Positions 40,431 through 40,510 of a DNA stretch of 49,704 bases are shown in pieces. This DNA is from a virus. Taxonomy: Duplodnaviria; Heunggongvirae; Uroviricota; Caudoviricetes. Location: IMG/VR virus record IMGVR_UViG_2703718837_000001; one strand, given 5' to 3'. The position numbers were made by a program, and so were the translations under genes. Below the pieces are notes generated by a model. It saw only the letters and a list, made by a program, of their open reading frames with translations, made no database searches and was not told where the DNA came from. Each line of letters begins with the position of its first letter. Within the stretch, counting starts at the first letter, position 1.

Positions 40431-40510
40431 TAATCACTACGATTGCGAGCATACTGTCACAAATGACAACTCGTAGAATCTGTTAACAAACTAGATTCTA
40501 CGAGGTTTCA

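Follow-up and report, generated by a model that had tools for sequence, protein, structure and literature searches.

A hairpin spanning the late promoter LPsit and the pmgC ribosome-binding site in P1-like phages: a candidate translational gate

The pmgC locus and its exchangeable upstream neighbors

The stretch of DNA analyzed here, hereafter the window (IMG/VR record IMGVR_UViG_2703718837_000001; 49,704 nucleotides), comes from a P1/P7-like phage of the genus Punavirus and is 98-99% identical to several P1-like records. The locus under study lies between two accessory genes and the late pmgC-tub-pmgB-sit operon, and holds the following features:

39366..40430, plus strand: accessory genes corresponding to P7 upf50.5 (lipoprotein) and upf50.0 (DUF5384 membrane protein), from the P7 annotation
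40461..40469, plus strand: -22 box of LPsit (Lpa-binding 9-bp element), AAATGACAA, transferred from the curated P1/P7 annotation by alignment
40470..40481, plus strand: 5' (left) hairpin arm, CTCGTAGAATCT, read from the sequence and found by repeat search
40474..40479, plus strand: LPsit -10 hexamer TAGAAT, within the left arm, from the P1/P7 annotation and the 11-promoter consensus
40482..40492, plus strand: hairpin loop, GTTAACAAACT, 11 nt, with the predicted LPsit start at A40486, read from the sequence
40493..40504, plus strand: 3' (right) hairpin arm, AGATTCTACGAG, overlapping the pmgC Shine-Dalgarno (SD) sequence, from the sequence, repeat search and RNA folding
40502..40505, plus strand: pmgC SD GAGG, 5 nt 5' of the ATG, with GAG inside the stem, read from the sequence
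40511..41077, plus strand: pmgC (P7 tubA), first gene of the late pmgC-tub-pmgB-sit operon, by homology (phrog_1851)
41088-41699, plus strand: tub, by homology
41714-42595, plus strand: pmgB, by homology
42677-46069, plus strand: sit, encoding a transglycosylase and putative tape measure, by homology

The first gene of the operon, pmgC, is essential in P1, as determined by CRISPRi and by earlier genetics (PMC10695390).

In every context that we examined, the neighboring upstream ORF was co-directional with pmgC and stopped 59-296 nt before its ATG, and most of these adjacent ORFs encode products with signal-peptide-like N-termini. The cassettes themselves differ, with sim in P1, the lipoprotein and DUF5384 genes in P7 and in the window, and YfjT-family proteins elsewhere. 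Comparison of 88 P1-like loci and their diverged relatives showed that sequences with unrelated upstream contexts become homologous 2-3 nt ahead of the -22 box, with at least six unrelated contexts joined to the same promoter-hairpin module. The upstream ORF stops right at the -22 box in several of the contexts, which leaves no room there for a terminator, and in the window the terminator scan predicted none between 40430 and 40511 and did not flag the palindrome itself. Sigma-70-type promoters are annotated or predicted upstream, and promoter prediction placed a promoter-like site at 39139-39166 of the window. From the sequence, it is plausible that transcripts of the co-directional cassette read through into the pmgC leader, with upf50.5 and upf50.0 as their likely source in this phage.

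Between the c4 operator and LPsit, the region at about 39100-40460, together with its equivalents in the compared loci (L001-L113), forms a hot spot of cassette exchange. The protein encoded at 39366-39887 within it carries the PHROGs label 'DNA methyltransferase' (phrog_1277), whereas the P7 annotation describes an outer-membrane lipoprotein with a signal peptide; Pfam returned only weak matches (TraT, glycine-zipper), and the methyltransferase label is probably wrong.

An inverted repeat between the -22 box and the start codon

The palindrome in front of pmgC is real and lies beyond chance expectation. Its perfect stem comprises 12 bp, formed by CTCGTAGAATCT (40470-40481) and AGATTCTACGAG (40493-40504); a thirteenth pair is G.U (G40482.U40492), and an imperfect extension of the helix to 40464/40510 brings it to 18 nt at 89%. 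By length, the palindrome ranks third among the perfect hairpins of the 49.7-kb window, while first-order Markov simulations with loops of 3-20 nt predicted only ~0.06 per window for stems of 12 bp or more. RNA covering positions 40431-40530 folded with -26.3 kcal/mol (z = -5.2), a stability reached by none of 200 shuffled sequences, and the local hairpin alone accounted for -19.3 kcal/mol.

A preliminary description of this DNA had reported a perfect palindrome with 10-bp arms at 40465-40496, upstream of the tail-tube operon. Both the existence of the inverted repeat and its genomic setting stand, as the gene at 40511 is pmgC (P7 tubA) and tub, pmgB and sit come after it; the geometry needed revision. 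The 10-nt arms quoted there lie at 40472-40481 (CGTAGAATCT) and 40493-40502 (AGATTCTACG), so the coordinates were off by +7/+6, and the arms do pair as described, with the perfect repeat running on to 12 bp. The loop, given as 12 nt with one extra 'a' in the quoted letters, is 11 nt long (GTTAACAAACT), and 8 nt, not 15 bp, separate the 10-nt right arm from the start codon at 40511. We also observed that the heptamer AATGACA is present twice at the locus, once within the -22 box (40462-40468) and once at the pmgC start codon (40510-40516).

The left arm contains the -10 hexamer of LPsit

LPsit is annotated in both curated records, those of P1 (AF234172) and P7 (AF503408), where it is a sequence-based annotation; the P1 record places its -22 region 42-50 nt and its -10 hexamer 32-37 nt upstream of the pmgC ATG. 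From all 11 annotated P1 late promoters we built the consensus AAGTGACTT-N4-TAnAAT. The LPsit box agrees with AAGTGACTT at 6/9 positions in the window and at 7/9 in P1, with the canonical 4-nt spacer, and the layout found here, AAATGACAA-ctcg-TAGAAT, fits the late-promoter consensus. In P1, the box and the -10 of LPsit are both identical to those of LP26, and the TAGAAT of the window is the same hexamer as that of P1 LP26. LPsit thus has each of the elements that mark an Lpa-dependent late promoter, namely a 9-bp inverted-repeat box near -22, a 4-nt spacer and a TAnnnT -10 hexamer with no -35. Previous work has identified the 9-bp inverted repeat common to 11 P1 late promoters as the Lpa site (PMC10695390) and Lpa as a sequence-specific DNA-binding activator that works with host SspA (PMC1891329); by analogy with its promoter class, as described in this literature, LPsit would likewise depend on Lpa and SspA (PMC1891329, PMC10695390). 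The name 'LPsit' is used in a preprint for the promoter of the R-S-U tail-fiber operon, and that source was set aside as uninformative for the pmgC promoter.

In 9/9 of the TARAAT sequences analyzed, the base at +7 after the -10 was an A within the loop, corresponding to A40486 in the window. Sigma-70 holoenzyme usually starts transcription about 7 nt after the -10 hexamer. With the start site predicted from this -10 geometry, the late transcript is expected to begin in the loop, so that LPsit RNA would be without the left arm and unable to form the hairpin. It follows that the structure would act only on transcripts arriving from upstream.

The preliminary description had offered two roles for the palindrome, a binding site for a dimeric late regulator or a transcript-processing hairpin. 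Of this interpretation, late-gene control survives, as does, on the best reading, an RNA hairpin; the regulator site and the structure on late mRNA do not. According to the P1/P7 annotation, the Lpa site is a separate -22 box just upstream of the repeat, and, with the -10 located in the left arm, late RNA would not contain a hairpin to be processed. The same description had suggested looking for the palindrome in front of other late operons, and there it does not recur: allowing up to 2 mismatches, a window-wide search for the arm returned only the two arms themselves and one chance match, and the arm was absent at the 10 other P1 late promoters as well as at LP26, LP23 and LPs in the window. 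Since the arm occurs at none of the other late operons, it is not a shared late-operon operator.

Predicted accessibility of the pmgC ribosome-binding site

We calculated the opening cost of the pmgC ribosome-binding site (RBS) as the ensemble free energy needed to open positions -13 to +3, and compared read-through RNA with RNA beginning at the predicted LPsit start. The values were as follows:

Window: read-through RNA 18.7 kcal/mol, predicted-start RNA 6.8 kcal/mol
P1: read-through RNA 17.5 kcal/mol, predicted-start RNA 6.8 kcal/mol
Cronobacter phage JK004: read-through RNA 19.7 kcal/mol, predicted-start RNA 5.7 kcal/mol

Across seven P1/P7- and JK004-type sequences, the gap between read-through and predicted-start RNA ranged from 8.5 to 14.1 kcal/mol. 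The gap of 11.8 kcal/mol in the window was the highest among its 57 ORF starts, and random window positions gave a mean of 0.6 with a standard deviation of 2.5, only 3/600 of them reaching 8. Among the 11 P1 late promoters, LPsit (10.7) was again an outlier, the others showing gaps of 4.4 or less. The second-highest upstream-dependent occlusion of an RBS in the window was seen at the ORF start at 32221 (plus strand), with 8.4 kcal/mol.

We had considered pairing between the -10 and the SD as a general trait of P1 late promoters, and this idea was rejected, the gaps at LPdar, LP26 and LPpac being just 3.5-4.4 kcal/mol. At P1 LPdar (L094, ~31183-31230), a CCTCCT located 3 nt after the -10 pairs with the lydA SD AGGAGG (4.2 kcal/mol), and at P1 LPpac (L095, ~42975-43030), a CTTTCGT made up of box and spacer pairs with an ACGAAAG beside the pacA SD (3.5 kcal/mol). 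On these folding predictions, LPdar and LPpac represent weaker versions of the same upstream-dependent RBS occlusion.

Conservation and covariation of the arms

The 88 P1-like loci gave 21 distinct variants, and an 11-bp core of the stem (CTCGTAGAATC/GATTCTACGAG) was invariant in 21/21 of them. The loop and the upper end of the stem did vary among the P1-like phages, with free variation at the inner positions 40481-40483 and 40489-40492. The SD GAGG was kept in all lineages. In the lineage formed by JK004 and its Salmonella, Enterobacter and Klebsiella counterparts, in which PmgC is 74-78% identical, JK004-type sequences have a perfect 13-bp stem (CTCGTAAAATCGG/CCGATTTTACGAG) closed by an unrelated 8-nt loop. 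Here the -10 has changed from TAGAAT to TAAAAT and the change is offset by a C to T in the partner arm, and a T:A pair at the top of the stem has become G:C. The G:C to A:U swap recurs, independently, between L105 (68% identity) and L107 (65% identity), with TAAAAT facing UUUUU in L107; in L105 both arms are 2 nt shorter (CUUAGAA/UUCUGAG), and the -10 is still paired with the SD region. The Klebsiella aerogenes stem contains a U.G wobble.

When pairing was counted over 12 variants, 95.5% of the cells paired in register, compared with 28-47% when the partner columns were slid, and the count included two pairs changed on both sides and one G-C pair that became G.U. This covariation represents ~3-4 independent events, and compensatory changes of this kind would equally keep a DNA palindrome. 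Mismatches derived from transitions were G.U on the plus strand in 4/4 cases, with 0 A.C (p ~0.06), a bias that modestly favors a plus-strand RNA over a DNA palindrome. The spacing of paired positions was nearly constant across lineages (21-22 nt), which does not discriminate between RNA and DNA; an argument against protein binding from variable half-site spacing was dropped in view of this near-constant alignment spacing.

The promoter-hairpin module was absent in D6, Pantoea, Citrobacter, Chimaeribacter, Vibrio, a Desulfovibrio MAG, L103, L104 and L109. In most homologs with 61% identity or less (D6, Pantoea, Citrobacter, L103/L104), pmgC directly follows or overlaps an upstream structural gene (bplB where annotated), and the Chimaeribacter contig (L089) and L109 have a terminator-like hairpin before pmgC. 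L105-L107 combine a canonical intrinsic terminator upstream with a weak hairpin, the gap being 1.2-2.9 kcal/mol; this combination fits an insulating role as far as the sequences of these very few lineages go. A second scan of viral contigs with the JK004 protein yielded no new lineages.

Two observations concern the JK004 record (L003) itself. Its pmgC homolog, gene_12, is annotated as starting at 2366; the hairpin and SD are immediately followed by a conserved ATG (MTPRQLLE) at 2324, 42 nt upstream of the annotated start. In JK004-type sequences, moreover, pairing is possible between the CAUG of the box and the one that contains the start codon, which would stretch the helix over the AUG.

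A proposed translational gate on pmgC

The reading that we regard as reasonably probable is that the palindrome encodes an RNA hairpin that acts as a promoter-embedded translational gate on pmgC. Its anatomy is compact: the DNA for the 5' arm holds the -10 of LPsit, the 3' arm lies over the pmgC SD, and the two arms are 11 nt apart. Transcripts from upstream sigma-70 promoters, through sim in P1 or through upf50.5/upf50.0 here, would carry both arms, and such read-through RNA would fold at once into a hairpin of ~-19 kcal/mol. With both arms on the same transcript the pmgC RBS would be hidden, and PmgC would not be translated. More speculatively, the untranslated RNA may entail silencing of the downstream tail genes as well, via lost translational coupling or Rho-dependent polarity. 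Upon activation of LPsit by Lpa and host SspA, RNA polymerase would start at approximately A40486 in the loop, and the resulting late mRNA, devoid of the 5' arm, would present an open RBS and allow expression of pmgC-tub-pmgB-sit. The outcome would be a tail-tube operon limited to the late phase, whatever the neighboring cassette transcribes. Such a gate would act directly on pmgC only; separate start regions serve tub, pmgB and sit.

A broader version, which we hold to be doubtful, would make the hairpin a general cassette insulator, in which blocked translation of pmgC leads to Rho-dependent polarity and silences the whole ~9 kb tail operon. The locus would then be a safe landing pad, explaining why at least six unrelated co-directional cassettes join exactly at the -22 box of LPsit.

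Alternative explanations

It is distinctly unlikely that the element is instead a weak or non-canonical terminator, or a 3'-end stabilizer, for the upstream cassette, which late RNA would bypass by starting in the loop; such a function could coexist with the gate. Although the stem has a GC-rich base (CUCG/CGAG) followed by GUUUCAAU, the U tract is poor (4/8 in the P1 type) and unconserved (GUUGGCAU or GUUGCCAU, 3/8, in the JK004 type), the loop is large at 8-11 nt, and the terminator scan passed over the hairpin; what we found is not the GC-rich stem, short loop and immediate U-rich tract of a Rho-independent terminator. Its location can be read in two ways. The hairpin comes directly after co-directional accessory genes for which no other terminator is present, and it is degenerate in lineages with a canonical terminator upstream; yet it is part of the conserved pmgC module and not of the exchangeable cassettes, and its right arm is placed over the SD. 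Partial termination may occur and would serve the same insulating purpose.

We consider it very unlikely that a dimeric protein, for instance a repressor acting on the LPsit -10 or a further late regulator, uses the palindrome as its DNA operator. The idea is suggested by the overlap of a perfect 12-bp palindrome with a -10 hexamer, and the DNA symmetry is also kept by the compensatory changes, at the nearly constant spacing of 21-22 nt. The plus-strand G.U mismatches, however, break the DNA symmetry while preserving the RNA pairing, and the inner positions vary freely within the P1-like phages. The arm is moreover unique in the window and missing from the other late promoters, and no C1 operator is annotated at the palindrome, C1 operators being 17-bp sites annotated as monovalent. 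These operators are asymmetric. The known site of Lpa, for its part, is the separate -22 box (PMC10695390).

A processing hairpin, in which RNase III or another enzyme cuts within the stem of upstream-initiated RNA and separates the cassette and pmgC mRNAs, thereby destroying or freeing the RBS, is likewise highly improbable. The helix is stable and perfect, and in the JK004 type it can be extended to ~20 bp (CAAC/GUUG, and CAUG/CAUG including the start codon), but this extension is unconserved in the P1/P7 type, where one is left with a helix of 12-13 bp and no link to a known processing motif. For E. coli RNase III, such a helix is short. Rfam yielded only one match, to mir-10, whose 20.3 bits fall short of the gathering score of 47.5; a generic hairpin resemblance accounts for it.

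Finally, a chance or hitch-hiking palindrome with no function of its own is hardly credible: although both arms hold independently constrained elements (the -10 and the SD), each of which could be conserved separately along with the 5' UTR, and although invariance tells little among relatives that are mostly 97-99% identical, just 0.06 such stems are expected per window, the 9/12 right-arm bases outside the SD mirror the substitutions of the left arm, as well as its 2-nt shortening, at PmgC identities of 65-78%, and the loop and flanks diverge completely while the arms co-vary.

Comparison with known systems

The proposed gate on pmgC closely resembles a class of hairpins in phage T4. Long early transcripts of T4 genes e, soc, 49 and I-TevI have their SD and/or AUG sequestered (PMC3014915, PMC2988022), and the late promoters lie inside the region that encodes the 5' strand, so that late transcripts are without that strand of the helix (PMC3014915, PMC2988022). 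I-TevII/III, segB and mobE of Aeh1 are further members of this class (PMC3014915, PMC2988022), and the arrangement, with the late promoter in the 5' arm, is kept in related phages (PMC3014915, PMC2988022). The LPsit hairpin likewise has a stable helix over the SD, its 12-bp stem holding GAG, and a late-promoter element within the 5' arm, the -10 TAGAAT; structure and 5'-arm promoter are likewise found together in several lineages, namely P1/P7, JK004/Salmonella/Klebsiella/Enterobacter and L105/L107. On the P1 side, the likeness is one of sequence and predicted folding.

The two systems differ in their promoters and in the lifestyle of the phage. T4 uses gp55/gp33 with TATAAATA, whereas LPsit would be read by host sigma-70 RNA polymerase from a -10 hexamer together with an Lpa/SspA-dependent -22 box. 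The phage carrying LPsit is temperate and plasmid-borne, and the upstream RNA is proposed to come from an exchangeable cassette, in contrast to the early and middle operons of T4. The logic of the proposed hairpin gate is that of the T4 hairpins, in another promoter class and another lifestyle, at a promoter that had already been annotated.

Within P1, LPsit belongs with the Lpa-dependent late promoters (cf. LPs, LPdar and LP26), and the hairpin is no part of the definition of that class: the other ten P1 late promoters are without comparable pairing of -10 and SD, LPdar and LPpac being much weaker analogues. Rho-independent insulators, such as GCCCGTTCCGGGC-TTTT upstream of P1 LPpac and those upstream of pmgC in L105-L109, would share the insulating purpose; unlike them, the LPsit hairpin has no U tract, has a large loop and is proposed to act on translation. 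The hairpin is unannotated in the P1 and P7 records (AF234172, AF503408), and the searchable literature, which did not include the P1 genome paper, yielded no account of it.

Implications

P1 serves as a workhorse phage, and P1-like plasmid prophages occur widely and carry accessory and resistance genes. If the translational gate holds true, the hairpin protects an essential late operon from the transcription of an exchangeable neighboring cassette, the control logic of a lytic phage, T4, extends to a temperate phage that uses sigma-70 and an activator, and the locus offers a clear case of a -10 hexamer co-evolving with its pairing partner in the mRNA leader. The position of the hairpin at a cassette-exchange boundary is, beside this co-evolution of -10 and leader, its neatest aspect. 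Should the broader cassette-insulator reading hold as well, the co-evolution of a -10 with the 5' UTR would be a design rule to seek in other temperate phages. The hairpin is also of relevance to users of LPsit, or of cargo inserted upstream of pmgC, in P1-based vectors: with the left arm removed, expression of the tail genes could become leaky, and a strong upstream promoter alone should not express pmgC.

Other hairpins in the window

The two longest perfect hairpins of the window overlap at 1443-1514, just after the ORF at 880-1440 and within a gap of ~800 nt that contains no ORF of at least 60 aa. One has a stem of 14 bp (1443-1456/1460-1473, loop 3) and the other a stem of 20 bp (1465-1484/1495-1514, loop 10); they are mutually exclusive because positions 1465-1473 are common to both. 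Three further perfect hairpins, with stems of 10-11 bp and loops of 4-6 nt, cluster within 500 nt (36631-36656, 37011-37036 and 37088-37113) on the low-coordinate side of the ant gene.
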